This document shows positions 20,129 to 52,115 of a stretch of 64,000 nt of DNA, one piece after another. The stretch spans positions 124,001-188,000 of the forward strand of contig CAYXJN010000008.1 in assembly GCA_964464605.1 (NCBI GenBank). Direction: 5' to 3'. The DNA is from an uncultured Ignavibacteriales bacterium (GTDB lineage Bacteria; Zixibacteria; MSB-5A5; GN15; FEB-12). A program made the translations under genes and the position numbers. The notes below the pieces were generated by a model. It did not search any database. It was given only the letters and a program-made list of their open reading frames with translations, and was not told where the DNA came from. Within the stretch, counting starts at the first letter, position 1. Each line of letters opens with the position of its first letter.

Positions 20129-20183
20129 ATGGCGGGGTCTACGAGACGCGTTTCGCAACTGGATCATGACCTCAGCCGCGTGA
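20129..20183. repeat. att-like repeat family 1: 20-bp core (reverse complement of a tRNA-Asp-like 3' end) plus orphan tail WRGLRDAFRNWIMTSAA*
   Basis: ATGGCGGGGTCTACGAGACG is identical at 27204 and 35031; the minus strand reads GT-CTCGT-AGACCCC-G-CCA. Confidence 0.85.
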
Positions 20184-20439
20184 GTTGACCTGCCAAAACT
20201 ACCCAAAACACCCCAAAAGTCAAGATTTGGCCGTTCTTATGGACAAACCGGAAGAGTCCCGACAAAGTTGCGTCAATGGACGTTGTTCGAACTTTTGAGG
20301 GGTCAATTCGATACCTATTGGCCGTTTGAGCAAGCCATTTCCATAGATGCTATTGTAATGTATTTTGCCAATCCATAAAAGCGCTCCTCGCTAAAAGTCT
20401 TGTCTAAGTGCTGATATAGTAATATGTTGAAACTATACT

Positions 20440-21006
20440 ATGGTTCTTGATGACTCTCAATTATGGAATGAAATTTTAGAGGGCAAGGAGCAGGCGTGGC
20501 GGAACCTGATAGTTCGTTATGCTTCTTTAGTCAATACCGTTGCTGTTCGATTGGGACTATCTTCTCAAGAAGCTGCTGATGTTTTCCAAACGGTCTGGGC
20601 TATCCTCTACGAGCGACGCAAGTCAATTAAGGAGCCATCCCGTATTTCCGCTTGGCTTGTGACAACTGCAAAAAGGGAATCGATAAAGGCAAAAGTTCAT
20701 CGAACGCCCGATGCCGATCCAGAATCAATGAAGGCGTTGGAAATTGAAGACAGTAATCTTCTTCCGGATGAGACGTTGGAACGTGTTGAACAACAGAACC
20801 ATCTGGAAACAGCACTTTTCGCAATTGATCCTCGCTGCCGGAAACTGCTTGAACGGTTGTTCTTTGCTGAAGAAGAGGTGTCCTATGAGCAGATAGGTGA
20901 AGAACTGGGCATTGCCTTTAATTCCTTAGGGCCGACTCGCCAACGGTGTTTGGAGAAACTTAAGAAAGTACTATTGGAAAGTGGCTATTTAGATGTACGA
21001 AAATAG
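20440..21006 (+). CDS. ECF-type RNA polymerase sigma-70 factor
   Basis: AADVFQTVW, ISAWLVTTAKRES (region 2), SYEQIGEELGI..LGPTRQRCLEKL (region 4). Confidence 0.92.
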   Translation: MVLDDSQLWNEILEGKEQAWRNLIVRYASLVNTVAVRLGLSSQEAADVFQTVWAILYERRKSIKEPSRISAWLVTTAKRESIKAKVHRTPDADPESMKALEIEDSNLLPDETLERVEQQNHLETALFAIDPRCRKLLERLFFAEEEVSYEQIGEELGIAFNSLGPTRQRCLEKLKKVLLESGYLDVRK

Positions 21007-21024
21007 CAATTTGCTGCTCTGTAT
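20993..21024 (+). promoter_or_regulatory. Putative cognate ECF promoter ATGTACGA-N16-CTCTGTAT, copy 1
   Basis: The same two 8-mers with the same 16-nt spacing recur at 25815-25846, each upstream of a gene of this module. Confidence 0.6.
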
Positions 21025-21040
21025 CTATGAGAACTGAAAT

Positions 21041-21622
21041 ATGAGTAAAAATCTATCCAACAAGCATTTGTCGCGCAAGGAGTTAATAGTATTCTCGAAG
21101 TCTGTGGCAGGGGCTTTACCGGAACACCTGAGCGTGTGTAAGGACTGTTCTGGATTGCTTGAACTATTCACTCGTTTTCAAGTTGCTGGAGAACGTCAAC
21201 TGGAAAACGTTCCAGCGGGTTGGATCGAAAAAGCGGTGGCAATTGCTAAACCAAAACGCGTCAAAGAGGCAATTCAACAGTTGGTTGCTTACTTGGCGTT
21301 TGATTCGTGGACTCAACCGATTCCTATCGGTGTTCGCTCGATGGGACAATTGGCTAATCGTCGAGTTCGCTACAACGTCAATGAATACAGCATTGACATA
21401 CGAATGGAGAAGCAACAGACCGAGTATGCGTTCATTGCAACAGTTTCTAAAAAAGATGAACGAGATCCATCTTTTACTCTGGTCAGCGCTGGTCGCTCAG
21501 TTGTGGCGGATGAGGATGGTTACTACCAGTGGGTTTCTTCACGGCCACCGAAGCGGATTTCATTCCATTCGTCGGATATTATTATTCATCTACCGGTGAC
21601 ACTATGGAACAAGCCGAGTTAA
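21041..21622 (+). CDS. Putative zinc-finger anti-sigma factor with soluble beta-rich C-terminal domain
   Basis: H..HLSVCKDC (HxxxCxxC) directly after the ECF gene; LAFDSW..GVRS; no transmembrane helix seen. Confidence 0.65.
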   Translation: MSKNLSNKHLSRKELIVFSKSVAGALPEHLSVCKDCSGLLELFTRFQVAGERQLENVPAGWIEKAVAIAKPKRVKEAIQQLVAYLAFDSWTQPIPIGVRSMGQLANRRVRYNVNEYSIDIRMEKQQTEYAFIATVSKKDERDPSFTLVSAGRSVVADEDGYYQWVSSRPPKRISFHSSDIIIHLPVTLWNKPS

Positions 21623-24339
21623 CTTTAGATCGCTCAGCGACGCTATTTTTGAAGAGTGGCAACCTAAACGGGCAAGATCAAGCTGCTCTTGCTTTATCAA
21701 TCGATAGTCATATACGACAATTGGCTCAGCGTTCGCTGAAAAATGCTCTTTTTCTTTCGCGAACTTACGCTAAGGCAGCGGATAAGGCTGGCGGCCAAAT
21801 GGTGCTTGCCGCACAAAGAACGCTTGCGCGGGTGACTCACCAAAACGGATTACACTCCGAAGCGGAGGCGGCATACAAGCGGGCCTGGGCACTGGCAAAA
21901 GATGATGTCATCATTCGGGCGCGTCTCGATCGGTCACTTATCGACCTGTATATGTATCTTGGTGATTTTGATGAATCGCAGCGCCGCGCAAAAAATGCTC
22001 TGCGTATCTTCGGCGCCAAAAAGATGGTTGCGGACATTGCGATGACGAATGTCAACTATGCGAATATGATGCATCGACAGGATAAACATGTCGACGCTGA
22101 ACGGTTGTATCATAAAGCACAGCGGTATTTTGAAGGTGCAGGAGACGAGCTATCTACCGCTCGCTGCTATTACAATCGAGCAAATACTCTGGTACAACTT
22201 TTCTCATTTGATCTTGCTGAAGAATTGTATACAAAAGCAGATCGGATATATCGTCATCATCAGTTTTTTCTGGATTCTACCGAATCTCGTTATGGATTGG
22301 CCTGGCTAAAGATGCTTCGTGGTGAGTTTCACATTGCTTTGTCTGAACTACAGAATTGCGAAGATGAATATCGAAAGGCGGATCATCCAAGAGGCTGTGC
22401 ACTGTGTAAGCTTGATAGAGCTGAAATTTATCTCGGATTGAATCTTTTTCCCGATGCACTTGAATCAGCAAGGCACGCAGGAAAGGAATTCAAACGATTG
22501 AAACTCCACTACGAAATGGCAAAAGCAGAGTTGTTTTGCACTCAGGCGCTGTTGGGGCTTGGTCGTACTTCTGAAGCGCGAAATGTTATTAACCGAGTGG
22601 TTGCAGCGTTTGAAAAAGAGAAAAATTCTGGCTTTCTTGGCGCATCTTTATTGACCTCAGCCGCTCTAACTACCAAGTCTGACGATGCTCTAAAAACACT
22701 TCGGAAAGCAAGGAAGCTATTTACTCATTCACAGCTTCCGCTTTGGCAGGCAATCTGCGATGTTCGCCTTATAGATATTCCAAATTCTGCCACCTCAGCC
22801 CTTAATCGACTTGAGAGAAATCGAGCTGCCCAATCGGTTCCACATCTGTTTTCAGCAGTTCAAACAGCTATCGGCGATCAGTGCGCAAAACGGGGTGAGC
22901 TGCCAACTGCCAGACGTCATTGGTCAAAAGCGGCACGACGTTTGGAATCAGTTCGTGCGCAACTTCCGCCACTTGAAATGCGAGATGCATTCTCACGAAA
23001 TCGATTGGAACCATTCCGTCGATTGATTGAAACTTACTTGGAAAGTGATCCGCATCAAGCAGCGCTGTGGATTGATAGATATCGGACAGCTGGTCTTTGG
23101 ACGCCAATATCAAACACGCTACACAATGACCCGGCGAGAATCTCTGCGGTTACTGCATTGCAAAGTCTCGCGGAACAAGTATCGAGCCTCTCACGGCAGA
23201 TAAGCTCCAATAAACGGGATTACGCCATTTCTTTGACACAATCTTCCTATTCAGTTAATAAGCTGATAGCATCACTCGAAAGGAAGATACGATTGAGAAT
23301 GGCTGCGCTGGAAAAAAGAACAAACGGCAACTTTGAAGAAACAGATATGCTGTCAGACTATTTCAAATCACTTTCATACAAACAACCGATCGTTCAATTT
23401 CACTTCGATTCTACGAATATCTTTGCCGTTATTCATTATAGAGGGGAAGCGCGTGTGCACCGTTATGAACAAGGGAAACAGAAGATCGAAGCTCTCATGC
23501 AGAGGTGGCGATTTCTTCTTGATCAAGCAATTTGTTCAGAGCAGGAAAATTACACTTCATCGGATGAAAACGTCCTTTTCGATCGTTTAGGCAAGCTACT
23601 TTGGGATCCATTGCAATTGCCGGGAAGTGCTGATTCTGTGTTGATTTTTCCAGATGGGGTACTCTCAAATCTGCCGTGGAGTGCGGTTCGTACAAAAGGC
23701 AAAGCACTTATCGATCAGATAGGAATAATACTTGCCCCAAGTGTTCGCCATTTTGCAGCAGCACAATCGCGTGAAAAACAGTATTCCCGTCGAATAATTT
23801 TTGCCGCGGCTTCCAATGATATCCCGCAGGTCAAAAAGGAAATTCAGGAAATCACAGCAAATAAAGAAAGTCTTTGGATCACCTTCGATCCTTCCAAACG
23901 TGCCGATTGGTTGCAAGCTGAGGGTTCCGATGCCTGGCATTTTGCCGGACATGCCCATTTCCGTTCCGACAATCCATTTTATTCCTACCTCAGTCTTACA
24001 GATGGGCCGTTATTTGCCGCTGATCTCCGGTTGAAACAAACTGCTGTAAATCTTGTTACTTTAGCAGCGTGTCGAACTGGTGAACAAACCACGGGTTCTG
24101 GAGAAGAACCATCAGGTTTTGTTCGCTCCCTTCTCGAAATGGGAGCCCGTACAGTGATTGCTGGGCATTGGGCTGTATCGGATACCTCAACGGCCTTATG
24201 GATGAAGACTTTTTATCAGAATTATGATTCAAACATACCAATCAGTGATGCCGTTCGAAAATCTTCTAAATGCGTTCGAGAGCGGTTTCCATCTGCTTGT
24301 CACTGGGCAGCATTTTCGGTATTTGGCACGGTTTCATAG
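21604..24339 (+). CDS. TPR-repeat CHAT-domain (caspase-like) protease
   Basis: Long TPR region, then IFPDGVLSNLPW, HFAGH (His), LAACRTG (Cys), WAVSD, HWAAFSVFG; start refined to MEQAEL. Confidence 0.9.
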   Translation: MEQAELTLDRSATLFLKSGNLNGQDQAALALSIDSHIRQLAQRSLKNALFLSRTYAKAADKAGGQMVLAAQRTLARVTHQNGLHSEAEAAYKRAWALAKDDVIIRARLDRSLIDLYMYLGDFDESQRRAKNALRIFGAKKMVADIAMTNVNYANMMHRQDKHVDAERLYHKAQRYFEGAGDELSTARCYYNRANTLVQLFSFDLAEELYTKADRIYRHHQFFLDSTESRYGLAWLKMLRGEFHIALSELQNCEDEYRKADHPRGCALCKLDRAEIYLGLNLFPDALESARHAGKEFKRLKLHYEMAKAELFCTQALLGLGRTSEARNVINRVVAAFEKEKNSGFLGASLLTSAALTTKSDDALKTLRKARKLFTHSQLPLWQAICDVRLIDIPNSATSALNRLERNRAAQSVPHLFSAVQTAIGDQCAKRGELPTARRHWSKAARRLESVRAQLPPLEMRDAFSRNRLEPFRRLIETYLESDPHQAALWIDRYRTAGLWTPISNTLHNDPARISAVTALQSLAEQVSSLSRQISSNKRDYAISLTQSSYSVNKLIASLERKIRLRMAALEKRTNGNFEETDMLSDYFKSLSYKQPIVQFHFDSTNIFAVIHYRGEARVHRYEQGKQKIEALMQRWRFLLDQAICSEQENYTSSDENVLFDRLGKLLWDPLQLPGSADSVLIFPDGVLSNLPWSAVRTKGKALIDQIGIILAPSVRHFAAAQSREKQYSRRIIFAAASNDIPQVKKEIQEITANKESLWITFDPSKRADWLQAEGSDAWHFAGHAHFRSDNPFYSYLSLTDGPLFAADLRLKQTAVNLVTLAACRTGEQTTGSGEEPSGFVRSLLEMGARTVIAGHWAVSDTSTALWMKTFYQNYDSNIPISDAVRKSSKCVRERFPSACHWAAFSVFGTVS

Positions 24340-24353
24340 GAGTTAAATAAGTT

Positions 24354-25748
24354 ATGCGCAAAATGTTTCAATTCAGCAACGCACTTGTCTGGATATCTTG
24401 CTTTCTATGCGGAAGTACTATTTTTGCTGGCAACGGTGTAGATGACAAAGTTCCAGGTGAAATAGTATTAAAACTGTTGCCGGGTGAAAACATTGACTCT
24501 GTTAATGCTCGCTTTGGAACAATTACAAAAAAATATATTCCACAAACCGGCAATTACCTTCTCACAGCTCAGTCGGGACAGGACACCGACAGTCTGTCGA
24601 CAGAAATTGAAGTGGAGAATGAAGTAGAATTTTGTGACCCCAATTTCATTCTAGATGCCCCTGAGCCAGTTCAGTCGAGCCAACCGTTCTTGGATAATCA
24701 ATTCATTGGCACATATGAAAATCAAACAGCCGCGTCTACGTTGCATCTAAGCGAAGCCCAGCAGGTGACGACCGGAAGTAATATCATGGTGGGGGTGATT
24801 GATGGCGGGGTCAATATTTCGCATCCAGTTTTTGAAGGTACTGCTTCTTATGGGTATGATTTCGTTGATGGGGATTCAATTGCGGATGACCCTATGGGCG
24901 GCAATGGATCGGGGCATGGTACATTTATTGCGGGAGTGATTAAGCTGGTTGCGCCGGACGCGCAAATAGTTTCCTACAGGGTTTTTGACACGAGTGGCCG
25001 AGGCGATGGCTTTAGTATCGCTGAAGCTATAACATTGGCCGTTGATGATGGGTGCAAGGTTATTAACCTGAGTATGGTGATGTTTGATAAGCACGGTTCT
25101 ATTGATGCGGCACTGGCATACGCAAGGCTCCACAATGTACTGGTTGTGGCTGCCGCTGGCAATGATTCATCAACCGTTGAGCGGTTCCCGGCAAAAGACT
25201 CGGATGTCTTGGCTGTTGCAGCCGTTGATTCGTTGAATCGCCGTGCTGATTTTTCGAATTTTGGTGGGAAAATCGATGTTTGCGCACCGGGAATTAATGT
25301 ATACGCGCCGTTCTTAGATACCATGTTTGCGTGGTGGAATGGTACAAGTTTCGCAACCCCCTTTGTTGCCGGACAGGCGGCGCTCCTCTTTTCGATGAGC
25401 CCTAATACACATCGAGAGGCGGTTCGGACAGCGATAATAAATACAGCGATCGATATCGACAGCTGGAATCCTGGATTGGAGGGAGAATTAGGTGACGGAT
25501 TGATCGATATCCCGTCGTCTTTATCGGCGTTTGCTCCGTTTCGTTGCGGGGACATGAACAACAATGGGTTAGGGCCGACCATAAGTGACTTAACCTATCT
25601 GGTTCAGTTCCTTTTTGGCGGTGGAAATCCCCCTCAGAACTTAGTTTCGGCTGACGTGAATGGAACAGGAAACGTAACGGTAGCAGATTTGGTCTATTTA
25701 GTGGGCTATCTCTTTAACAATGGCCCCGCGCCCAATTGCGGGAATTAG
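24354..25748 (+). CDS. Secreted S8 subtilisin-like protease with dockerin-like C-terminus
   Basis: Signal peptide; triad VIDGG / GHGT / GTSFATP; AAAGND; tail DLTYLVQFLF..DLVYLVGYLFNNGPAPNC. Confidence 0.92.
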   Translation: MRKMFQFSNALVWISCFLCGSTIFAGNGVDDKVPGEIVLKLLPGENIDSVNARFGTITKKYIPQTGNYLLTAQSGQDTDSLSTEIEVENEVEFCDPNFILDAPEPVQSSQPFLDNQFIGTYENQTAASTLHLSEAQQVTTGSNIMVGVIDGGVNISHPVFEGTASYGYDFVDGDSIADDPMGGNGSGHGTFIAGVIKLVAPDAQIVSYRVFDTSGRGDGFSIAEAITLAVDDGCKVINLSMVMFDKHGSIDAALAYARLHNVLVVAAAGNDSSTVERFPAKDSDVLAVAAVDSLNRRADFSNFGGKIDVCAPGINVYAPFLDTMFAWWNGTSFATPFVAGQAALLFSMSPNTHREAVRTAIINTAIDIDSWNPGLEGELGDGLIDIPSSLSAFAPFRCGDMNNNGLGPTISDLTYLVQFLFGGGNPPQNLVSADVNGTGNVTVADLVYLVGYLFNNGPAPNCGN

Positions 25749-25771
25749 AAATCTAAGGCGTTGAATGATAT

Positions 25772-25808
25772 AAACTCCTGTCCGGTTTACGGACAGGAGT
25801 TTTTTTTG
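25772..25808 (+). terminator. Intrinsic terminator
   Basis: aaactcctgtcc-ggtttac-ggacaggagttt stem-loop followed by a T run. Confidence 0.85.
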
Positions 25809-25814
25809 CACTCA

Positions 25815-25846
25815 ATGTACGATAGCCATGTTGCGACTCTCTGTAT
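25815..25846 (+). promoter_or_regulatory. Putative cognate ECF promoter ATGTACGA-N16-CTCTGTAT, copy 2
   Basis: Lies just after a terminator and upstream of the DUF5666 gene; boxes identical to 20993-21024. Confidence 0.6.
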
Positions 25847-25887
25847 TTGTAAACAAAGCCGGAAAACAGCTATCAGAAAGGATTATT

Positions 25888-27084
25888 ATGAAAAAGACAC
25901 GAGCGATTCACTTTAGCAGCCTAATTGCCGCCTTAGTTCTGGCAGTGATGGCGATCGGTTGTTCAGACAGCGATAAACGGGGTCAACTTACCGGTTCGGC
26001 TAATACGATTACTGGCGGTCGTTTTTCCGGAGGCGAAGTTGAAGTTGCTGGTCGTGTGTTGACCATTGACGCCAACGGACGAATCATGACTCTTTCTGGA
26101 TTCCAATCCACTATTGAAATTGCACCGGACGCTGAGGTTGTCTTGCGTGACAATAACGGTGAGACACCGATTACGCTTTCGCAAATCAATCCAGGTGACT
26201 CGGCCGAAGTACGTGGAGATATGCAAGGAAACGGCACTTTGCTTGCCGATCGCGTTCGTATTCGAATGGATGAGAATGAGAACGAAATTGAAAAAGGTGG
26301 TAGAGTAGAATCCATTGACGCCATAGCCCGCACCTTAACTCTTAAAAATGACCCTACATTGTATCAAGTAGCCGCAAACGCTCAAATAGTGCAAAAAGTA
26401 TCTGGAACCGAAACTCCTATCGACTTAGGTGATATTACTCCAGGTGATTCAGTTGATATACGTGGCAGCGCGCAAACAAATGGATCAGTACTTGTCGATC
26501 GCTTACGTTTGCGAGTCGGGTTTGATGATGACTTTGCCTCTGATTTAGAATTCAAAGGTGAAATTACTGAGATCGACTACACTGGTAGTACTTTCTCGGT
26601 AAGCACTCGCTCCGGTGTTATTAGTGTTGATGCAAATACTTACATTTTTACCAAGGTAGATTTCAATGACACAGCAAGTGGAATTGCAAAGCGCAACGGT
26701 GAGTCTACCGATACGCGCCTTAAGCAGCGCATTCAATTTACTGACCTCGTTGCCGGTGATACAGTCGAAGTGTATGCAAAAGTGACCGGGCTGAATATGT
26801 ACTATGCAGTTGCCGTAGAACTTGAAGATGGGGCGTTTGAAAATGATCAGGAAGTTGAGTTCAAATCAGTGATTGCAGCGATCGACGCGAATACTCGTGT
26901 GGTCACATTTACGACAGAATCATGGATTGGCAATGTGCATATTGACGCGGTGCTGACTGGTCTAAATGATGAGGCAATCGTACTAAGCGCATTCGCAGTA
27001 GGCCAGATCGTCGAAGTCAAAGGCTTCTCCCAGCCTAACGGTGAGCTGACAATAACGGAAATGAAAAGAGACAATAACCTGTAA
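25888..27084 (+). CDS. DUF5666 repeat (OB-fold-like) lipoprotein
   Basis: Lipobox AIGC; four repeats of the pattern GxVxxID..GDxVEVxG; AGAAAGGA RBS before MKKTRA. Confidence 0.75.
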   Translation: MKKTRAIHFSSLIAALVLAVMAIGCSDSDKRGQLTGSANTITGGRFSGGEVEVAGRVLTIDANGRIMTLSGFQSTIEIAPDAEVVLRDNNGETPITLSQINPGDSAEVRGDMQGNGTLLADRVRIRMDENENEIEKGGRVESIDAIARTLTLKNDPTLYQVAANAQIVQKVSGTETPIDLGDITPGDSVDIRGSAQTNGSVLVDRLRLRVGFDDDFASDLEFKGEITEIDYTGSTFSVSTRSGVISVDANTYIFTKVDFNDTASGIAKRNGESTDTRLKQRIQFTDLVAGDTVEVYAKVTGLNMYYAVAVELEDGAFENDQEVEFKSVIAAIDANTRVVTFTTESWIGNVHIDAVLTGLNDEAIVLSAFAVGQIVEVKGFSQPNGELTITEMKRDNNL

Positions 27085-27111
27085 CAGAAACCCTCTCTGA
27101 ACCAGGTTCAA

Positions 27112-27149
27112 AGACCTCCGGTATCCGATATTCGGTGTCGGGGGTTTTT
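27112..27149 (+). terminator. Probable intrinsic terminator
   Basis: Imperfect stem-loop agacctccggtatccga-tat-tcggtgtcggggg followed by ttttt. Confidence 0.6.
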
Positions 27150-27203
27150 CATTTTCAGATCGTTTGTAAAAAACTGAATCGATATCTGAATGTTGAAAGT
27201 CAA

Positions 27204-27258
27204 ATGGCGGGGTCTACGAGACGACTTCCGCAACTGGGTATTGAACTCGGTGGCTTAA
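27204..27258. repeat. att-like repeat family 1 plus orphan tail WRGLRDDFRNWVLNSVA*
   Basis: 20-bp core identical to 20129 and 35031. Confidence 0.85.
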
Positions 27259-27346
27259 ATCTGCGGTAACATCAAGCTAATAGCATACACTAAATTGACA
27301 TTATTTCGACAGTGACAAGCGATACCTGTCCAATTAGATTACTTTC

Positions 27347-27643
27347 ATGAAATCAAACGATGTCTGTTATCCAATTCTGCTACACAAGATACCAGGGGTA
27401 GATACACCAAACGATACTGTCACACGTCATATTGCATTTGTAAAAGATATCGACGATCAGGAAAAACTAATTCTTGCAGGGCCGTTCGGAGATTTTCCCG
27501 GCGGGATGGTGGTTGTACGAGCTGAATCAGTAGAAGCTGCAACCAAGATTGCCGAGTCTGATCCGTTTGTCACTGAGGGTGTCCGAACATTCGAAGTGCG
27601 GACCTGGCTGTTGGCTAACCGTGGAAACGGGTATTTGAAATAA
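27347..27643 (+). CDS. YciI family protein
   Basis: RHIAFV..LILAGPF..GGMVVVRAES..ESDPFVTEG. Confidence 0.85.
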   Translation: MKSNDVCYPILLHKIPGVDTPNDTVTRHIAFVKDIDDQEKLILAGPFGDFPGGMVVVRAESVEAATKIAESDPFVTEGVRTFEVRTWLLANRGNGYLK

Positions 27644-27826
27644 GGCCGAGTTAACCCTTCGGGAATGATGTTTATTGCCGTAACTTATTGCTGATCAATG
27701 AAATGATAAGAAAAGCCAGTTTGAGCGAGAAGGTTTTCGCAATTACGCCCGGTCGTTTTAAGTCCAAAATAAAAAATAAGTGAAAAAAGTAACAATTTGG
27801 CCTTGACTAAATGAAATGAAATACCG

Positions 27827-27854
27827 ATATATAAGACAAAAGACTCTTAAATCT
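27827..27854. promoter_or_regulatory. Putative Rrf2 operator, site 1
   Basis: Inverted repeat TAAGA-N8-TCTTA just before the Rrf2 start; shares AGACTCTNAAATCTG with 28338-28366. Confidence 0.45.
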
Positions 27855-27857
27855 GGA

Positions 27858-28298
27858 ATGAGTGTGTTATTATCTAAAGGTTGTGCGTACGCAATTCGAG
27901 CTTCACTTCTTGTAACGGTCAAAGAAGTGAAGGATGGCAGGAAGTTCATCCCGATCCGTGAGCTTGCCGATGAACTTGATCTCTCATTTCATTTCTTGAC
28001 GAAAATTCTTCAGACCTTGACCGAAGCTAACATACTCGAATCATTTCGCGGTCCCAACGGGGGAGTAGGTCTGGCGCGACCGGCCAAAGACCTTTATCTG
28101 CTCGACATCATTTCTGCCGTCGACGGTATGTCACTTTTCTCGGAATGTGCGCTTGGGCTGCCCGGATGCGGTGAACGTACACCTTGTCCCCTGCACGAAT
28201 CTTGGGCAAGAAGAAGAGAAGACCTCAGACGGATGTTTGAGAAAACCTCTCTTGCAGGTCTGGCTAAGGAACTAACGGCAAATCATTTACGGAAATAG
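27858..28298 (+). CDS. Rrf2-family transcriptional regulator with three Cys (Fe-S type)
   Basis: YAIRA, HTH FLTKILQTL, SFRGPNGG, CALGLPGCGERTPCPLH; start refined to MSVLLSK. Confidence 0.9.
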   Translation: MSVLLSKGCAYAIRASLLVTVKEVKDGRKFIPIRELADELDLSFHFLTKILQTLTEANILESFRGPNGGVGLARPAKDLYLLDIISAVDGMSLFSECALGLPGCGERTPCPLHESWARRREDLRRMFEKTSLAGLAKELTANHLRK

Positions 28299-28337
28299 GA
28301 TGCCATGAACGTCATAGAAAAGAAATGGTGTTTGGTT

Positions 28338-28365
28338 AGATTTAGGATATCAGACTCTGAAATCT
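28338..28365. promoter_or_regulatory. Putative Rrf2 operator, site 2, upstream of the nos operon
   Basis: Inverted repeat AGATTT-aggatatcagactctg-AAATCT, similar to site 1. Confidence 0.45.
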
Positions 28366-28425
28366 GTATCCGCTCATTTCGAAAAGCACATCTTCAAGCA
28401 AACACATATTTAAGGAGATACTTTT

Positions 28426-28971
28426 ATGAGAAGAATTAGGAAGGGCTATGTACTGCGAGCAGTAATGTTATCCGCTGTGACCTGTTTAATTTTCATTGGT
28501 TGCGCTTCAACTCAGGAGACAGAGACACAGCGGCAAGCTCGGTGGTCTCAGGGGAAACTGTCTAGTTGGGAAGTTGAGAACGGCATTGGGCCCATTACTG
28601 CTGACATCGAAATTGGCGTAGTCGATCCTGCTAAAGCCGAGCAGGGGAAACAGCTATTTGCCAACAAGTGTGCGACCTGCCATTACCTTGATTTCAAGAA
28701 GACCGGACCTCCTCTCAGAGACGTAACGAAAAGACGCAGCGAATACTATGTTGTGAATCAAATCCTCAATCCGGAACAAATGGGAAAGATGCATCCTTAC
28801 GGTAAACAACTGGTAGCTCAGTACGCACAGTATATGACAATTCAAGGAATTACTCGAGACGATGCATTCGCTTTACTCGACTTCCTCAGAACACAGGCGA
28901 CTCAGCCGCCGGTACCTATGGAGCAACAGCCCGGCTTCGGCGTTCCTGCCTCGCCGGTAGCAACGCAATAA
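28426..28971 (+). CDS. Monoheme cytochrome c lipoprotein of the clade II nos cluster
   Basis: Lipobox FIGC; CATCH heme motif; GPPLRDVTKRR; directly upstream of nosZ. Confidence 0.88.
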   Translation: MRRIRKGYVLRAVMLSAVTCLIFIGCASTQETETQRQARWSQGKLSSWEVENGIGPITADIEIGVVDPAKAEQGKQLFANKCATCHYLDFKKTGPPLRDVTKRRSEYYVVNQILNPEQMGKMHPYGKQLVAQYAQYMTIQGITRDDAFALLDFLRTQATQPPVPMEQQPGFGVPASPVATQ

Positions 28972-29022
28972 TTGAAAATGGGAAGTTGAATTTATGCAAT
29001 TGATACACAGGAAGGAAAATAT

Positions 29023-30936
29023 ATGAGAACGAAATATCTCGTTCATTGGCTCACAGTATCTGCTTTTGTTGTGTTTTCACTTGTCATCGGCTGCTCCAAA
29101 AATGAGGAGGCTGGTGGTTTTGGAGAAGCAGCGGATAAAGTATACGTAGCTCCGGGCAGTTATGATGAATTCTACGCCTTTATGTCCGGAGGTTTTAGCG
29201 GACAAGTTTCCGTCTATGGACTACCGTCGGGTCGTTTATTTCGGGTGATTCCCGTTTTCAGTCAAGATCCCGAAAAAGGATATGGATATAGTGAAGAGAC
29301 GAAGCCCCTGCTTATGACCTCTCACGGCTTTGTACCTTGGGATGATGCCCATCATCCTCAACTATCAATGACCGATGGTCAGACCGATGGGCGTTGGCTC
29401 TTTATCAACGGGAACAATACCCCTCGGATAGCGCGACTTGATCTCACGACTTTTGAAACGGCGGAAATCATCGAGATTCCAAATTCCGGAGGAAATCATG
29501 GTTCTCCTTTCTTAACGCCGAACACGGAATATGTAGTTGCCTCGACGCGATTCAGCGTGCCAATTCCGCAAAAAGATGTACCGATTACATCGTATAAGGA
29601 AAATTTCAAAGGAACTATCTCATATATCAAAGTTGATCCTGCTTCCGGACGCATGAATGTCGCTTTCCAGATTCTCGTTCCGGGAATCAACTATGATCTT
29701 TCTCGATCCGGCAAAGGTCCGTCGTATGGCTGGTCATTCTTCACTTCTTATAACTCGGAACAGGCAAATACCCAACTGGAGGTAAATGCCTCACAAAACG
29801 ACAAAGATCTCATTGCGGCGGTCAATTGGAAGTTGGCGGAAGAACTGATTGCACAAGGCAAAGGGGAAAGCTGGCCTGCATCTTATTATCACAATTATGT
29901 GGATGATGCCGATGTTGCCCAGAGCGAAGTCAAGGAAAAGGTCACCGTGTTGATCGCCAAGGATCACCCCGGGCTGGTGTATTACCTACCAACGCCTAAG
30001 TCACCTCATGGTTGCGATGTTGACCCTACTGGCGAGTATATAGTTGCCGGCGGAAAGCTTGCCGCGCTCATTCCGGTGCATTCTTTCACTAAATTCAAAG
30101 CAGCTGTTGAGAATAAAGAGTTCGACGGCGATCTTGAAGGAATTCCAATCTTGAAATACGAATCAGTATTGGCAGGTGAAGTTAAAGAACCGGGTCTCGG
30201 ACCGCTTCATACTGAATTTGACGGTAAAGGATTCGGCTATACTTCGATGTTCTTATCCTCTGAGATCGTAAAATGGAAAATTGGTACGTGGGAAGTCATC
30301 GATCGTATCCCCACGTATTATTCTATCGGCCATCTCATGATTCCAGGGGGGGACACGAAACAACCGTACGGCAAATATGTTCTCGCTTTGAACAAGATTA
30401 CGAAAGATCGCTACCTGCCGACCGGCCCTGAATTGACGCAATCCGCCCAGCTCATTGATATCACCGGTGACAAAATGAAGCTGCTACTTGATTTTCCGAC
30501 CATTGGCGAACCCCATTATGCTCAAGCGTGTCCTGCCACACTTATCAAAGATCGTTCACTACGATGGTTTCCGATTTCTGAAAACAAGAATCCCTACGGT
30601 ATCAAATCAGAGGGAGAAGCGCGGGTGATTCGAGACGGCAAAAACGTTCACGTGTATATCAGTACCATTCGCTCTCACTTTGCGCCCGATAATATTGAGG
30701 GCATAAAGAAGGGCGATAACGTCTACTTTCATGTCACCAATCTGGAACAGGATTGGGATGTACCGCACGGATTCAGCGTTTTGGGAGCGAATACCTCTGA
30801 GTTGCTTGTCATGCCGGGCCAGACGAGAACGCTGCTCTGGCAGCCGCAAGACATTGGCGTATTCCCGTTTTATTGCACCGATTTCTGCTCTGCGCTTCAT
30901 CAGGAGATGGAGGGCTGGATCAGGGTGTCGAATTAA
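29023..30936 (+). CDS. nosZ: Sec-dependent (clade II) nitrous-oxide reductase
   Basis: Lipoprotein signal without twin-Arg; CuZ His motifs DAHHP, GNHG, SPHG, PLHT, IGHL, EPHY; CuA site HGF..CTDFCSALHQEM. Confidence 0.97.
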   Translation: MRTKYLVHWLTVSAFVVFSLVIGCSKNEEAGGFGEAADKVYVAPGSYDEFYAFMSGGFSGQVSVYGLPSGRLFRVIPVFSQDPEKGYGYSEETKPLLMTSHGFVPWDDAHHPQLSMTDGQTDGRWLFINGNNTPRIARLDLTTFETAEIIEIPNSGGNHGSPFLTPNTEYVVASTRFSVPIPQKDVPITSYKENFKGTISYIKVDPASGRMNVAFQILVPGINYDLSRSGKGPSYGWSFFTSYNSEQANTQLEVNASQNDKDLIAAVNWKLAEELIAQGKGESWPASYYHNYVDDADVAQSEVKEKVTVLIAKDHPGLVYYLPTPKSPHGCDVDPTGEYIVAGGKLAALIPVHSFTKFKAAVENKEFDGDLEGIPILKYESVLAGEVKEPGLGPLHTEFDGKGFGYTSMFLSSEIVKWKIGTWEVIDRIPTYYSIGHLMIPGGDTKQPYGKYVLALNKITKDRYLPTGPELTQSAQLIDITGDKMKLLLDFPTIGEPHYAQACPATLIKDRSLRWFPISENKNPYGIKSEGEARVIRDGKNVHVYISTIRSHFAPDNIEGIKKGDNVYFHVTNLEQDWDVPHGFSVLGANTSELLVMPGQTRTLLWQPQDIGVFPFYCTDFCSALHQEMEGWIRVSN

Positions 30937-30950
30937 CATGTGATGAATAT

Positions 30951-32102
30951 ATGATTTACCAAAATGAAATCACCGGCTCCGTTGAAAGGCGTGAGCCGGC
31001 GCTTCATGCCAAGACGCAAAGCAGTCGAGTCCAGATGAAACCTATTTCCCGACTCTTCGTTGGCTTAGCGGCATTGCTTTTAGCGGCAACGTACTTTCTT
31101 CCACTTTGGGAGATATCTCTGAATGCACCGCAATATCCGGAAGGGTTAGGCATGGAAATCTGGATCAATCAGATTCAAGGTCAGCATGAAGGAGATCTAA
31201 AAAAAATCAACAATTTGAACCATTATATCGGAATGAAACAAATAAAGCCGGAATCAATTCCCGAACTTTTGATCATGCCGTGGATAATGCGGGGTGTGAT
31301 GTTGTTCGGGTTACTTGTCGCTCTATTGGGAAGGCGAGGTATGCTCTTGATGTGGCTGTTTCTCTTTTTGCTGGTTTCTGCTGCCGGGTTTGTTGACTTC
31401 TATCTTTGGGGATATGACTACGGTCATAATCTTGATTTCGATAAAGCAATTATTAAGGTCCCCGGGATGAGTTATCAACCTCCGCTCATCGGAACCAAAA
31501 AACTTCTCAACTTCGAAGCGACCTCACTGCCGGGCATGGGAGGCTACATTCTGATAGTCGCAGTTCTCATTGGCACAGGTGTGTGGGGGTATGAGAAACG
31601 GTTACGAGTGTTGCTGAAGCGAGCAATAGTGCAAACAGCTACGATAGGAACAGCCGTACTTGTGCTCATGAGCGGCAGCATCGCGTGCAGTTCATATCGT
31701 CCTGCGAGAATAAGCTATGGAATAGATCAATGCGATTATTGTAAAATGACCATAGTCGACAAAAGTTTCGGAGCAGAGCTGGTCACCACAAAGGGGAAAA
31801 TATATAAATTCGATTCCATCGAGTGCCTTGCTGCTGCCGCACTCGAAAGGGATGGCAAATCGGAATCAAATTATTCCCTTTGGGTCACCAATTTTCACGA
31901 ACCGGAAGTGTTTTTAAACGTCGAGAATGCATTCGTTGTTGCCGCAGAGCGACAAAGAAGCCCGATGGGTGTAGGGCTGGTCGGTGTTGATTCCAAAGAA
32001 GCAGCCACGGAACTGATTGGGCATGTGGGTGGTGTGCTTCTAAAATGGAGCGAAGTTAAAAAACATGTCGCGCAGGCTTGGAGGCTGCCTACTGCCAAAT
32101 GA
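30951..32102 (+). CDS. nosL: NosB-like membrane protein fused to NosL copper chaperone
   Basis: N half APQYPEGL, NNLNHYIGM, WGYDYGHNLD, YQPPLIG; C half CDYCKMTI, FDSIEC, SPMG; start uncertain (30951 or 31035). Confidence 0.85.
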   Translation: MIYQNEITGSVERREPALHAKTQSSRVQMKPISRLFVGLAALLLAATYFLPLWEISLNAPQYPEGLGMEIWINQIQGQHEGDLKKINNLNHYIGMKQIKPESIPELLIMPWIMRGVMLFGLLVALLGRRGMLLMWLFLFLLVSAAGFVDFYLWGYDYGHNLDFDKAIIKVPGMSYQPPLIGTKKLLNFEATSLPGMGGYILIVAVLIGTGVWGYEKRLRVLLKRAIVQTATIGTAVLVLMSGSIACSSYRPARISYGIDQCDYCKMTIVDKSFGAELVTTKGKIYKFDSIECLAAAALERDGKSESNYSLWVTNFHEPEVFLNVENAFVVAAERQRSPMGVGLVGVDSKEAATELIGHVGGVLLKWSEVKKHVAQAWRLPTAK

Positions 32103-33397
32103 TTCGTACGAACTATTCAACATGTGTTGCCAAGCTCATCAAGAAAATCAAGTTGAACAGACTGATACCATGTCTGCCGGCTTTGCTCCTTGTTCAGTCG
32201 GTTACACCCCGTGTTGATGGTAAAGTGCTAACGGTCGGACCCATAGATCACTATCTGACTCTTTCCTCGGCTGTTAGTGGCGCAAGAGCCGGCGATACAA
32301 TCGTCGTTCAGTCAGCAACCTACACGTTGAATAATCTTCAAATAGACAAACCAATCGCATTGCTTGGTAAAGATTGGCCTACATTGACTGCGTCTGAAAA
32401 CTCTCATTTGGTCAGCATCACTGCTTCAAATGTTGTGATATCCGGCTTCATTTTTAAAGGAGTGCCGATCAGCTTTACCAAGGAAAATGCCGCAATACGG
32501 ATAGATACAGCACATAATTGTGAGGTCATCGGTAACCGCTTTTATGACAATTTCTTCGGCGTTTACCTGGCCGGTTCTCATCATTGCCGCGTCGCAAACA
32601 ATGAGATAGTTGGTTCAGCGAAAAACTTGACGACGGCAGGCAATGGTATACATCTGTGGAAATGTCATGATATACTCATTGAACAAAACAGAATCGAAAA
32701 GCATCGTGATGGCATATACCTTGAATTCGTTACTGCGAGTGTCATGCAGCACAATATAAGTCGTGAGAATTTGCGCTACGGCCTCCATTTTATGTTCTCC
32801 GATAGCTGCCGCTATACAAGCAATCAATTCATTCAGAACGGTGCAGGTGTCGCCGTCATGTACACGGCTCACGTGGATATGACGGACAATGTTTTTGAAG
32901 ACAGCTGGGGTGGGGCTTCGTATGGTTTACTGCTGAAGGATATCAAGGACAGTCGAGTTACCGACAACCATATAGCAAACAACTCTGTCGGAATATACCT
33001 GGAAGGTTCCGACCGCATAGAGATTCAGCGTAATACCTTTATTGCGAACGGCTGGGCGGTGAAAATAATGGCTAATTGCGTTGATGCCGAAATCCATGGC
33101 AATAATTTCATTGATAATTCATTTCAAGTTACCACGAATAGCAGGCAGACGTTCAGCCGGTTTTATGAAAACTATTGGAGTACGTACCGCGGATTCGATC
33201 TTGACCATGATGGCTGCGGTGATGTTCCCTTTCGCCCGGTCAGTTTGTTTTCACTTTTGGTCGAATCTGATCCGGCAACACTGGTATTAGTACGCAGCCT
33301 CCTTGTTGATCTGCTTAATTTAGCCGAGTGCGTGATGCCATCGCTTACCCCCGAAGCGCTAACCGATGCCAAGCCGCTCATGAGGCCGGCGATATGA
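32099..33397 (+). CDS. nosD: N2O reductase maturation protein NosD
   Basis: Beta-helix repeats, GNGIHLW, RDGIYLEF, RYGLHFMFS, NYWSTY..GDVPFRP; ATGA overlap with the previous gene. Confidence 0.93.
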   Translation: MIRTNYSTCVAKLIKKIKLNRLIPCLPALLLVQSVTPRVDGKVLTVGPIDHYLTLSSAVSGARAGDTIVVQSATYTLNNLQIDKPIALLGKDWPTLTASENSHLVSITASNVVISGFIFKGVPISFTKENAAIRIDTAHNCEVIGNRFYDNFFGVYLAGSHHCRVANNEIVGSAKNLTTAGNGIHLWKCHDILIEQNRIEKHRDGIYLEFVTASVMQHNISRENLRYGLHFMFSDSCRYTSNQFIQNGAGVAVMYTAHVDMTDNVFEDSWGGASYGLLLKDIKDSRVTDNHIANNSVGIYLEGSDRIEIQRNTFIANGWAVKIMANCVDAEIHGNNFIDNSFQVTTNSRQTFSRFYENYWSTYRGFDLDHDGCGDVPFRPVSLFSLLVESDPATLVLVRSLLVDLLNLAECVMPSLTPEALTDAKPLMRPAI

Positions 33398-34104
33398 TCG
33401 AAATCCACGGTCTTTACAAACGCTTCGGGAAACAGGTTGCGCTCCAGGAGATTAACCTTTCCATTCAGCGAGGCAGAGTCACCGGAATCATCGGACCAAA
33501 CGGATCAGGCAAAACAACGTTAGTAAAATGCCTGCTTGGATTGGTAACGCCAACGAGCGGAAGAATTACCATTGACGGGAAATTACTCGATGGGGCAAGT
33601 CACTATCGAAAGAACTTAGGCTATGTTCCTCAAGCCGCAAGTTTCCCGCTTGAATTAACCGGACGTGAAATTCTGAACGTTATACGAGGCTTGCGGGATG
33701 AAACAGAAACGAAGGAATCCGAACTCCTTAAACTGTTTGGTCTCAAACATGAAATAGACAAGCGGGTGAAAGCGATGTCGGGCGGCACTCGTCAGAAACT
33801 GAGCGTAGTGGCCGCTTGCATGTATTCCCCGGAATTACTCATTCTGGATGAACCTACGGCAGGGCTTGATCCTATTTCCAACATTCGATTGAAAGAATAC
33901 ATTTCACAACTACGAGATGATGGATGCACTATACTTTTGACTTCGCACATCATGAGCGACTTGGAAGAGTTGGCTGACGATGTCGTGATATTACTCGATG
34001 GCGTTCTGCGCTTTCTCGGCTCTGTTCGGGATCTCAAAGTAGCAATGGAAGAACCGAGTCTGGAAAAGGCAGTTGCGCTGCTTTTGGAGCGAGGCGCAGC
34101 GTGA
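33394..34104 (+). CDS. nosF: ABC ATPase NosF
   Basis: GPNGSGKT, MSGGTRQK, ILDEPTAGLD; located between nosD and nosY. Confidence 0.9.
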   Translation: MIEIHGLYKRFGKQVALQEINLSIQRGRVTGIIGPNGSGKTTLVKCLLGLVTPTSGRITIDGKLLDGASHYRKNLGYVPQAASFPLELTGREILNVIRGLRDETETKESELLKLFGLKHEIDKRVKAMSGGTRQKLSVVAACMYSPELLILDEPTAGLDPISNIRLKEYISQLRDDGCTILLTSHIMSDLEELADDVVILLDGVLRFLGSVRDLKVAMEEPSLEKAVALLLERGAA

Positions 34105-34892
34105 AGTCAGTCGGTCATATCGCTTGGTATACTATCCGTGACATCACGCGCAACCGATGGGGGCTATTGTACACGCTGTTTTTTATCGTCGTGACTGTCG
34201 GCCTATTCTTGTTGCAGTCGCATGCGGCAAAAGTAGCAGTGAGCCTGATGAGCATTTGCCTGTTTCTTATCCCGCTAGTCAGTTCATTGTTCGGTACCAT
34301 TTATTTCTATAATTCACGCGAGTTTATCGAATTAGTACTTACGCAGCCAATTTCGAGGAAGACCGTCTTTCTCGGAATGTTTGCCGGATTGTCCTGTGCG
34401 CTCATCGCCGGGTTTGCTATCGGTATTGCTTTGCCGTTCATTTTTTGGAGCGCGCAAATCTCCGGTCAAATACTCTCGCTTGCGCTGTTAGTATCGGTCG
34501 GTTCTTTTTTGACCGTTATTTTTCTCGCGCTCTCTTTTTTATCTGCAATTTTATTTGATGACAGAGGAAAGGGAATTGCTGTTACGCTCGGCGCCTGGCT
34601 TTTTACGGCTTTGGTATATGACGGATTGATTTTACTCGCCGCGATGTCGTTTTCTGATTATCCCCTCGAAATACCACTATTGGCCACTTCAATGGCAAAC
34701 CCCATCGATCTCGCTCGCGTAACATTGCTTGTTCAGACTGATTGGGCTGCGCTTATGGGTTACACAGGCGCAGTATTCAGCAGATTCTTTGGAACAAATC
34801 TCGGAGTATTTGTTGCTGCAGTCTCACTAATCGCCTGGTCCATCGGGCCGCTTTTAGTAGGGATTCGCAAATTCAGAACTAAAGATCTTTGA
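34101..34892 (+). CDS. nosY: ABC permease NosY
   Basis: Six TM helices; YNSREFIEL, NPIDLARV, ALMGYTGA. Confidence 0.9.
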   Translation: MKSVGHIAWYTIRDITRNRWGLLYTLFFIVVTVGLFLLQSHAAKVAVSLMSICLFLIPLVSSLFGTIYFYNSREFIELVLTQPISRKTVFLGMFAGLSCALIAGFAIGIALPFIFWSAQISGQILSLALLVSVGSFLTVIFLALSFLSAILFDDRGKGIAVTLGAWLFTALVYDGLILLAAMSFSDYPLEIPLLATSMANPIDLARVTLLVQTDWAALMGYTGAVFSRFFGTNLGVFVAAVSLIAWSIGPLLVGIRKFRTKDL

Positions 34893-35030
34893 GCAGGAAA
34901 TTGTGATGTTCATAGCATCCAATTTCAATAAGAGCTTGCCGAGATTTCTTTCTAATTATTTGCTTAACTATAACAAACTACGCAAAGTGCCACTATATTA
35001 ATTTATTGTCTGATAATTACTTGCGGAAAA

Positions 35031-35085
35031 ATGGCGGGGTCTACGAGACGAGTTTCGCAACTGGATTCTGACTTCCGCGGCTTAA
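35031..35085. repeat. att-like repeat family 1 plus orphan tail WRGLRDEFRNWILTSAA*
   Basis: 20-bp core identical to 20129 and 27204; in-frame stop at 35014-35016 and no start codon before the core. Confidence 0.85.
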
Positions 35086-35151
35086 AAAGACGGTCAAAAC
35101 GGGTTTTGTATACCACTGTTCTCGTAACCAGTTATCTGCTTCCAAAGGCTC

Positions 35152-37143: not shown

Positions 37144-37618
37144 ATACGCTATTTACAAGTACTTAGACAATATGCCAGACCAATTCTGTTTGTCAATGTA
37201 CCTTCAAGGGAACTTTACAGTACAATTTCTGTAAATCAGTAGCTCGAAATCGATCAGATGCACGCATTGCTGCAAACCCTGGAAAAGTGAGGAAACTTGG
37301 ATTTCCATTCTGATTTTTATGATGATCTTGGGGTCATGTGCTATCACCATTCAATCACCGTCGCATTGGCGCTTTTGGCCGAGAAGTTTGAGCTGTATGA
37401 CATTGCGAAAGTGATTATCCTCAATCTCATTCCCGGTACAATCTTGCACCTACTCAGTTCGCCCCGGTCATAACGTCAGATGGGGGTACCCGGAAACTTG
37501 AGCCAATACTATTGGGACTCATGTACTTACTGGCTTAGGCCGACATTTAATCAATGGCCAAAGTATGTCGAAGATAAAAGTAACTTTTCTTATTTGAAAG
37601 CAGTATAAATAGGCACTC

Positions 37619-38047
37619 ATGAATCGATCCGTAAAACAGTTGGTTATTCGTTTATTTATGCTGTTCACGTCGTTTTTCGCAACGACTGTTCCCGCCAACA
37701 GTGTGCTTTGCATAGGGGAAGAAGGGCATAGTCGCATAGAATTGCCTCATGTAGAATGTTGCCCTGAATTGGGGCATGAGAATTTTCATTCCATTGTTGA
37801 GCATGACGATGACTCGCTGACAAGCTGTGGATCATGTGTTGATTTCTACATCAACCTTGATGCCACGACAAAGTCATTCTCATCAAAAATCGATGCCGAT
37901 CTTTGTTCATATCCCGCAATTTCCCTTTTCAATATTGCATCAATATGTCCTCATTTCCCGCTGCTTGATTCATATAGGCAGCGATTTGGCATCATACCGA
38001 AACAGGCTCATTTCGCTATTCTCTCCACGGCAGTTATTCGCTGTTGA
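37619..38047 (+). CDS. Small exported Cys/His-rich protein heading the czc operon
   Basis: Signal-like N-terminus; VLCIGEEGHSRIE, CC, CGSCVD; ends in STAVIRC. Confidence 0.6.
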   Translation: MNRSVKQLVIRLFMLFTSFFATTVPANSVLCIGEEGHSRIELPHVECCPELGHENFHSIVEHDDDSLTSCGSCVDFYINLDATTKSFSSKIDADLCSYPAISLFNIASICPHFPLLDSYRQRFGIIPKQAHFAILSTAVIRC

Positions 38048-38147
38048 TTTTCTATCAATACTGATTTCTAAAATGGAACCCGTCATAAAGATGGGTTTGA
38101 GCCATGCTTCGGCATGGAAACCTTGAAGTATTGCTGGAGAACTATAC

Positions 38148-39464: not shown

Positions 39465-39469
39465 GATTC

Positions 39470-40850: not shown

Positions 40851-40861
<11 letters not shown>
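39470..40861 (+). CDS. czcB: Heavy-metal efflux periplasmic adaptor with His/Asp-rich segment
   Basis: HGHGDSHDEHGGDDHESHDGEDAHGDH; HIVPRFPG; VADMSTVWV; C-terminal SEAGHDH. Confidence 0.88.
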
Positions 40862-44406
<3,545 letters not shown>

Positions 44407-44423
44407 GGTGATTATACCCACCG

Positions 44424-45407: not shown

Positions 45408-45416
45408 AAATCGGTT

Positions 45417-52101: not shown

Positions 52102-52115
52102 CCATGATTATGAAG

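Follow-up and report, generated by a model that had tools for sequence, protein, structure and literature searches.

A tRNA-Asp island array whose adjoining large serine recombinase would exchange its C-terminal tail on integration and excision

Three repeats and a recombinase gene share one reading frame

The DNA investigated here is a window of 64,000 nt from contig CAYXJN010000008.1 (C8) of assembly GCA_964464605.1, which contains three direct repeats of the 3' end of a tRNA-Asp gene. The tRNA gene itself lies beyond the right end of the window, and the gene for a large serine recombinase (LSR) adjoins it and runs into it. Coordinates are those of the window unless C8 or L033 is named; LNNN and GNNN denote related loci and genomes, PNNNN database proteins and X public runs. 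The 18-mer TGGCGGGGTCTACGAGAC was located at 20130, 27205 and 35032, on the + strand each time, and the whole 2.8-Mb assembly held no copies beyond these three, the control with the reversed pattern giving 0. A repeat search grouped these sites into one family, with copies of 58 nt that are 74-84% identical and spaced at 7075 and 7827 nt. Each 54-nt repeat comprises an 18-nt mimic of the tRNA-Asp 3' end (the core), followed by a P' arm. The repeats are designated attL1 (20130..20183, with the mimic at 20130-20147 and a P' arm encoding RGLRDAFRNWIMTSAA, stop TGA), attL2 (27205..27258, core and a P' arm encoding RGLRDDFRNWVLNSVA, stop TAA) and attL3 (35032..35085, core and a P' arm encoding RGLRDEFRNWILTSAA, stop TAA), the last of these being the left end of the recombinase-bearing island.

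Translated from the TGG of the core, the copies give WRGLRDAFRNWIMTSAA, WRGLRDDFRNWVLNSVA and WRGLRDEFRNWILTSAA, each of 17 residues and each closed by a stop. These are exactly the equal-length tails listed in an earlier note on this DNA, which had also called many of the differences between them synonymous. The alignment bears this out, as seven of the 13 variable columns fall at codon position 3, four at position 2 and two at position 1, and the Nei-Gojobori proportions over codons 7-17 were 0.69 for synonymous (pS) and 0.15 for non-synonymous (pN) differences. The upstream in-frame stops which the note had reported at 27187 and 35014 were found to be TGA and TAA respectively, and copy 1 is preceded by only 29 open codons.

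ARAGORN detected no tRNA inside the window. The gene for tRNA-Asp(GTC) was located on the minus strand at C8:192336-192410, which is 4.3 kb beyond the right end of the window, where it is accompanied by tRNA-Val on the same strand (C8:192336-192581 for the pair) with a phosphoglucomutase gene beyond; this tRNA-Val/phosphoglucomutase flank is kept in relatives. As the repeats lie on one strand with tRNA-Asp beyond them, the repeats and the tRNA form one array. A tandem-island layout is thus present: the array is closed on one side by an intact tRNA with a recombinase gene beside it, and displaced copies of the tRNA 3' end stand at the other ends. Orphan core copies (those not part of a tRNA gene) and LSR-tRNA pairs sharing contig and strand were also found in G028 and G033.

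The LSR gene (C8:190903-192375; L033:9904-11376) lies on the + strand directly left of tRNA-Asp and encodes 490 aa beginning with MKCVIYARVSSKEQ. Pfam domains were identified for Resolvase (PF00239, E 2.4e-23, residues 4-149), Recombinase (PF07508, E 5.2e-16) and Zn_ribbon_recom (PF13408, E 7.8e-15), as predicted by the earlier note, which had proposed a recombinase of the large serine type. Among solved chains the best matches were to a resolvase-family domain (3guv) and TP901-1 integrase, and residues 218-324 match the C-terminal domain of A118 integrase (4kis, 6dnw; E 1.6e-7), which is the nearest solved relative.

The protein ends in ...PTYIKPFDILAKGSNFES-MRGRRDSNSRPHA and a stop, and its final 13 codons are antisense tRNA. 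The codons ATG CGG GGT CGA CGA GAC of the LSR are in register with TGG CGG GGT CTA CGA GAC of the repeats; a + strand recombinase open reading frame (ORF) entering the tRNA in the W-R-G frame, on which the earlier note had made its proposal depend, is therefore present. The replacement of the tail by antisense-tRNA sequence on integration, likewise foreseen, corresponds to these last 13 residues, and all three domains are kept when the gene is integrated. The proposal that the tail forms the last 17 aa of the recombinase stood with regard to frame and ORF end but not with regard to its first residue, as the rebuilt protein would read M-RGLRD... rather than W-RGLRD.... In the orphan copies this position is occupied by W (TGG), which stems either from the CCA end of the tRNA or from the final codon of an adjacent element. 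Taken together, it is probable that the repeats are attL-type junctions of islands stacked at tRNA-Asp and that the adjoining LSR swaps its C-terminal tail on integration and excision.

The tails are under purifying selection in the recombinase frame

The core was searched for, allowing up to two mismatches, in 61 related genomes and was present in 37. Some of the copies represent the antisense 3' end of tRNA-Asp(GTC), mostly with tRNA-Val next, and the remainder are orphans followed by tails such as WRGLRDDFRNWVIENSAA and a stop. From this and the related genomes 72 distinct core sites were gathered with the core as sole criterion, which leaves the codons from 7 on free of bias. Twenty-one of the sites are true tRNA-Asp genes; of the other 51, 34 reach their first stop in the LSR frame at codon 16-18. 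Removal of nine unrelated chance matches left 42 related tails, of which 15 have 17 aa, 16 have 18 aa, three have 16 aa and eight are broken or extended.

Variation from codon 12 to the end is strongly periodic. The mean entropies at codon positions 1, 2 and 3 were 0.78, 0.52 and 1.76 bits in the 17-aa tails (n=15) and 0.65, 0.42 and 1.40 bits in the 18-aa tails (n=16); a stop (TAA, TGA or TAG) is ever-present after the tails and the next 15 nt are near random (~1.8 bits). In the LSR frame pN/pS was 0.43 for the 17-aa and 0.31 for the 18-aa tails, compared with 1.1-2.9 in the other two sense frames. An excess of synonymous change in a larger alignment, which the earlier note had anticipated, is thus clear in the LSR frame among the 42 related tails, 31 of which are intact at 17-18 aa. 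The final residues of the intact tails are AA in 24 of 31 and A in 29 of 31. The period-3 variation, the constant stop and the low pN/pS indicate that the tail is under protein-level purifying selection, in addition to a constraint on DNA in its first half.

The latter constraint is seen at nt 22-33 (TTCCGCAACTGG; codons 8-11, F-R-N-W), which are almost invariant at wobble positions also, and it probably reflects the P' binding half-site of the recombinase. Conservation which is partly at the level of DNA counts against a tail that matters as protein, as does the occurrence of well-kept tails in small recombinase-less cassettes, where selection on them must be indirect. Both are what would be seen if the P' arms were merely recombinase-binding DNA, the open frame, fixed length and codon-like variation being by-products and the tail protein never made or irrelevant; the lack of an assembled full-length gene with a tail, described below, points the same way. 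Beyond nt 33, however, entropy is 1.4-1.8 bits at third positions but 0.4-0.8 bits at the first two, the stop always falls at codon 17-19 with similarity collapsing right behind it, and pN/pS is lowest in the frame of the LSR. Furthermore, an unrelated family of tails at tRNA-Asn has the same length, an Ala-rich end and AGA/CGA switches, and a serine integrase would not be expected to have a binding half-site reaching ~50 nt from the crossover. Binding alone is for these reasons considered unlikely to account for the tails.

A further difficulty is that the antisense frame sharing the wobble positions has pN/pS values nearly as low (0.55 and 0.37), and 27 of the 42 tails have it open throughout nt 1-57, as if the conserved frame were the end of a gene on the minus strand. 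This frame has neither a conserved start nor a continuation, its conservation ends exactly at the sense stop, and the sequence beyond the core is different at every copy, whereas the sense frame has the lower pN/pS and prolongs the LSR. A minus-strand gene end is the least credible of the explanations weighed here. It is also highly improbable that the tails are free-standing micro-ORFs, encoding peptides of 17-22 aa independent of the recombinase. Copy 2 does have an in-frame ATG five codons upstream (MLKVKW...) and ATG is the first codon in a few relatives (L036, L045), but most copies are without a start, their first codon being TGG, AAG, ACG or TAG, and in many an in-frame stop lies 0-5 codons upstream. 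Moreover, the frame is that in which the LSR enters the tRNA, and in one case such a tail is joined to a natural LSR remnant.

One orphan in a relative, L046:14584 (G047:C30:22583), has a core of the tRNA type (GGTTGAC, giving WRG and a stop), yet is followed by intact tail sequence. A premature stop in a P' variant would account for it, or else exchange can take place further right in the core.

Many related recombinases end in antisense tRNAs

At least 6103 relatives of the LSR were found at E<=1e-20 among 8000 candidates scored. Within the same order an LSR relative at E<=1e-30 was detected in 69 of 160 genomes, and of 30 loci fetched from this order, 22 have an ORF end that lies in an antisense tRNA (Asp 12, Asn 5, Gln 2, Ser 2 and Arg 1). 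The same arrangement was seen in metagenome loci from many data sets, with the ORF end lying within an antisense tRNA in 45 of 80 and a further 10 running off the contig; the targets there are Asn, Gln, Asp, Glu, His and Ser tRNAs. Coupling proteins of type IV secretion systems, TrbI, relaxase-like proteins and primases or primase-helicases are encoded upstream of the metagenome LSRs, and no relatives were found in the viral contigs searched with the LSR protein. Of the best 120 protein homologues, 66 continue into a reading of the antisense T-arm (..DSN..) and 37 terminate immediately behind the core; where the tRNA-Asp gene has GGTTGA, the LSR ends in ...RG and a stop.

Directly upstream of the LSR gene, outside the window, lies a tyrosine-recombinase-like gene (L033:8571-9680; C8:189571-190680) encoding 369 aa with Phage_integrase and SAM-like domains, in which the R, H-x-x-R, H and Y motifs were spotted by eye; it is preceded by a 197-aa ORF without a Pfam match. 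In ~20 loci of the order a relative of the 369-aa protein immediately precedes the LSR, irrespective of the tRNA target. So regular a neighbour, catalytically plausible, argues against assigning the reaction to the LSR, and a passage of the Islander paper (2015) treats tyrosine integrases as the classic tRNA-targeting enzymes. If the tyrosine recombinase were the integrase, the LSR gene would merely abut the site, and the tail swap would be real but without a role in the control of recombination. Against this, the distant relatives of the LSR that end in antisense tRNAs (the 45 of 80 loci above) are without this neighbour. A Phage_integrase domain was present in one of 41 ORFs scanned upstream of metagenome LSR genes, and in 50 loci, blastp with the 369-aa protein against the 105 ORFs of >=150 aa in the 2.6 kb preceding the LSR yielded no E value below 0.029. 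As the partner is missing beside these distant tRNA-overlapping LSRs, the constant feature is the LSR; in addition, the tails are selected as protein in the frame of the LSR. It is accordingly improbable that the tyrosine recombinase is the integrase, and we infer that the LSR catalyses the reaction, the adjoining gene being a candidate partner, directionality factor or second integrase.

A second family of tails was identified in the tRNA-Asn subfamily, where orphan junctions consist of CTCCCCCGGCTGGAC and then a tail. In the LSR frame these read LPRLD-V(S/T)RTFxxL(I/L)x(H/Y)Fxx(A/V/T)A, or ...DLRTFQPVVDYLKA(A/T/V)G, before the stop, with 16 residues after the core; the arginine codons switch between AGA and CGA, and pN/pS was 0.64 (n=9), the lowest among the six frames. 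In G078, the 60 kb upstream of the tRNA-Asn LSR contained no second copy of the core, and the pattern GAYNNNTTYCGNAAYTGG, applied to five genomes with LSRs at Asn, Gln, Arg or Ser tRNAs, had no match on the LSR contigs. A degenerate search for Gln-type tails was unspecific, forward counts being about those of the reversed control, and was dropped.

Two other arrangements were observed around the tRNA-Asn sites. At L100 (G133:C140:1-2600) a fragment of an Asp-type LSR ends ~45 nt before an orphan core and tail of the Asn type on the same strand. Longer tRNA-Asn fragments in relatives break at the anticodon loop (...CGCTGATTAA, then the break; G089:C1:2963163, G052:C1:4253939 and G117:C11:60470), and these probably belong to a different, tyrosine-integrase class of elements using another position in the same tRNA gene.

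Proposed exchange and the search for the excised form

The three repeats are best read as the left-end (attL-type) junctions of three islands stacked at the 3' end of tRNA-Asp(GTC), with the LSR gene of the tRNA-proximal island spanning its own attachment site. Owing to the shared codon register, recombination within the core would bring the LSR in frame with a tail. Recombination between the tRNA-side junction and any of the repeats would place a P' arm behind the LSR, giving ...FES-M-RGLRDxFRNWxxxSxA and a stop; the join with repeat 3 would read ...FES-M-RGLRDEFRNWILTSAA before the stop, and repeats 2 and 1 would supply their own tails. As the LSR crosses the att site in the shared frame, the P' arm would be both recombinase-binding DNA and an alternative 3' coding segment. 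Positions 1-2 of the core track the left arm and positions 8-11 the right arm, and positions 3-7 (GCGGG) never vary. From this invariance between arm-following positions the crossover would be placed within GCGGG, at the extreme 3' end of the tRNA.

The islands between the repeats may be accommodated in the same scheme. Stretches of 2-5 kb between orphan tails in relatives hold cargo genes only, and no recombinase was found in islands 1 and 2 of the window by Pfam analysis of their ORFs nor, for island 1, by tblastn with the LSR. The left flanks of orphan copies are of two kinds, namely the native terminator hairpin downstream of the tRNA and non-coding element ends, some of which share ...ATTG...GATATAAAA; in L015 such ends abut a true tRNA. 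The recombinase-less inner islands are best read as non-autonomous elements of the cis-mobilisable element (CIME) kind. In the accretion of streptococcal CIMEs, recombinase-less att-bounded segments likewise share one target, in a tandem arrangement, with an element that bears a recombinase, but the integrases of these systems are tyrosine recombinases and their att sites have no recombinase-coding part. The inner islands described here would travel only with the LSR island, by cis-mobilisation, and the LSR would take its working C-terminus from the attL that is used; such dependence would keep the tails of recombinase-less islands under selection.

The excised form was inferred from sequences and not observed, and the join of the LSR end to a tail follows from the shared frame. 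The results of searches for this form weigh against the proposed exchange. No full-length LSR with a contiguous tail of the RGLRDxFRNW type was found in the public data searched, and tblastn located no LSR body upstream of any orphan tail collected before that search. A bridging DNA pattern (FDILA...RDxFRNW), narrow in that TTC was fixed for Phe, matched neither viral nor metagenome contigs (0 each). When a natural stretch of 46 aa with a tail at its end was compared with longer proteins (82 aa or more), one word-sharing candidate emerged and none at E<=10. A protein search with an LSR remnant bearing an Asn-type tail returned two matches, which covered the body and left the tail uncovered. 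In runs X1 and X4, two of the public runs examined as Logan contigs (X1, X4, X9 and X12), contigs are continuous through the array; rare excision products are invisible in such contigs.

Partial forms were nevertheless encountered. The nearest natural case is in G132:C146, where a 5'-truncated LSR has body and tail in one open frame (...CPTYRKPFVFLDKGLSRTSW-LPWLD-VIRTFGPVIQYLHRVA and a stop), and downstream of it lie a 6.2-kb element and then tRNA-Asn. Four database proteins enter tail-like ends, namely P0060 and P0066 (...WLGVRNVFRN and ...WLGVRDAFRN), P0021 and P0023; the first two are probably cut by contig ends, and their contigs are absent from the 80 metagenome loci. Run X9 was the only one with contig breaks at the sites, at 27207-27224 and 35025-35054. 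Depth around repeat 3 in this run was 61 on the left and 38 on the right, two contigs carry other sequence left of 27207, and one joins 27239 back to 20216 (7024 back), although it may stem from a relative. Variation at the att sites would fit the X9 pattern, which is no proof of excision.

Possible roles of the tail and comparison with known systems

Both families of tails look, by eye, like short amphipathic helices ending in Ala. The integrated forms of the LSR end variably (..RG or ..RGRRDSNSRP[PH]A before the stop, that is ..RPHA, ..RPPA or ..RG), and the contrast between these variable ends and the conserved tails suggests that selection acts on the protein of the excised state. A helix of this appearance with an AA end would make the excised-form recombinase different in stability or directionality, and we tentatively propose that the tail is a state-specific C-terminal signal, either a degron of the ClpXP type or a determinant of direction, although the odds are somewhat against it. 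The tmRNA tag of the host is GESYALAA, its gene lying on another contig (C1:250045-250394). The choice between integration and excision by serine integrases is normally ascribed to separate directionality factors, and a recombinase with its last 16 residues exchanged by its own reaction would amount to control of directionality or stability without an extra gene.

The closest precedent is DsiB, described by McMurdie et al. (2011; PMC3146451). According to the sections of that paper used here, DsiB is a CcrB-like large serine recombinase of the ssrA islands of Dehalococcoides, and between tandem islands stand 20-bp direct repeats that copy the 3' end of the target. The authors suggested that the dsiB gene is fully functional perhaps only on the circle or beside an island supplying the 3' fragment. 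By description and layout the two systems are alike, as in both the LSR gene overlaps the att site at its 3' end and tandem islands are bounded by repeats of the target 3' end. They differ, as far as these sections go, in the target, which is tRNA-Asp(GTC) here and the tmRNA gene ssrA there, and in the neighbour, which is a tyrosine-recombinase-like gene here, whereas the partner of DsiB is the small serine recombinase DsiA. The overlapping part was reported to be divergent in length and sequence there, whereas the tail described here is conserved, of fixed length and under purifying selection. Finally, DsiB acts at ssrA, and the trait described here is shared by LSRs whose targets are tRNA genes for Asp, Asn, Gln, Ser, Arg, Glu and His. 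Beyond the DsiB precedent, the new elements are thus the swapped tail with its strong conservation and the breadth of the LSR clade that targets tRNAs. Nothing closer on serine integrases at tRNA genes or with an overlapping attP was found in the full-text literature, subscription journals excepted.

Two other systems show part of the arrangement. The passages used from a 2021 review (PMC8371274) describe self-disrupting recombinases as exclusively archaeal. As in the 'suicidal' SSV1-type integrases covered there, the att site lies in the recombinase's own gene and integration alters the product; those enzymes are tyrosine recombinases that are split into two inactive halves, whereas here a bacterial serine recombinase keeps its domains intact and would exchange its last 13-17 residues. 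In mycobacteriophage BPs, as given in part of PMC4557955, attP lies inside the repressor gene (gp33) and integration replaces the C-terminus, the long viral form bearing a C-terminal ssrA-like degradation tag that is absent from the prophage form. There the altered gene is a repressor and the integrase a tyrosine recombinase, whereas here the recombinase itself is altered and the degron role of the AA tail is hypothetical. The portion used from the Islander paper also says that tRNA genes are not known as targets of serine integrases, a statement on which the LSR genes ending in antisense tRNAs, many of them beside conjugation genes, have a bearing. A wider interpretation, which we offer as speculation, is that of a large undescribed clade of bacterial serine integrases at tRNA 3' ends in which the state of the element is recorded in the C-terminus of the enzyme, the conserved amphipathic AA tail of the excised circle acts as a degron or directionality switch, the integrated copy has antisense-tRNA residues devoid of meaning in its place, and recombinase-less cassettes with spare tails (in this array the nos and the ECF-sigma/CHAT/protease clusters) make up an integron-like platform. 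If so, whichever attL excises would supply the functional end of the recombinase and carry the intervening cassettes along.

Gene content of the islands and other features of the window

Island 1 (20184..27204, + strand, 7.0 kb) encodes an ECF-type sigma factor, a 193-aa ORF, a TPR-CHAT protein, an S8 subtilase and a DUF5666 protein, as assigned from ORFs and Pfam. Island 2 (27259..35031, + strand, 7.8 kb) was shown in the same way to encode YCII, an Rrf2 regulator, cytochrome c, NosZ, NosL, NosD, a NosF-like ABC ATPase and a NosY-like permease. It holds a complete nos cluster together with the Rrf2 and YCII genes, is att-bounded and recombinase-less, and nitrous-oxide reduction may be carried as a mobilisable cassette (27259-35031). 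An att-bounded, recombinase-less nos cluster of the clade-II type matters for the spread of nitrous-oxide reduction in sludge and bioreactor communities. GC content did not distinguish the islands.

A possible decayed fourth copy of core and tail (ATGGCCGGGGTCTGCAAGACGAGTTCACAGGCTGA...) is located at 10221..10265 on the + strand, with its frame broken by indels. It was found as a core match with two mismatches and aligns with the three copies over the whole 55 nt; the assignment is tentative, since a lone core match could arise by chance. If the copy is real, the 2-oxoacid:ferredoxin oxidoreductase region at ~10270-20129 may belong to this array as an older island. In relatives, synteny of the left flank (POR gene), assessed over 1.5 kb, was uninformative.

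Island 3, the recombinase-bearing island, occupies 35086..64000 of the window (+ strand) and is ~33.3 kb as a whole, reaching C8:192335. Its genes encode a Kelch/galactose-oxidase-like protein, an RND efflux system, an ArsP permease, a methyltransferase, a P-type metal ATPase, a DNA methylase, a ResIII helicase and a QueC-like protein. The ResIII helicase, an N6/N4 DNA methylase and the QueC-like protein (622 aa), the last with two unannotated neighbours, are encoded at 57258-63999 and L033:5014-7651, just upstream of the recombinase module, and this region may represent a DNA-modification or defence system of island 3. The methyltransferase genes at 3584-4087 and 45772-46275 are copies with 73% identity (repeat families D1/D2). 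A 67-nt repeat (45603-45669 and 47268-47334, 85% identical), which begins with the hairpin AGCCGGAC...GTCCGGCT, brackets a methyltransferase/THAP4-like gene pair in island 3.

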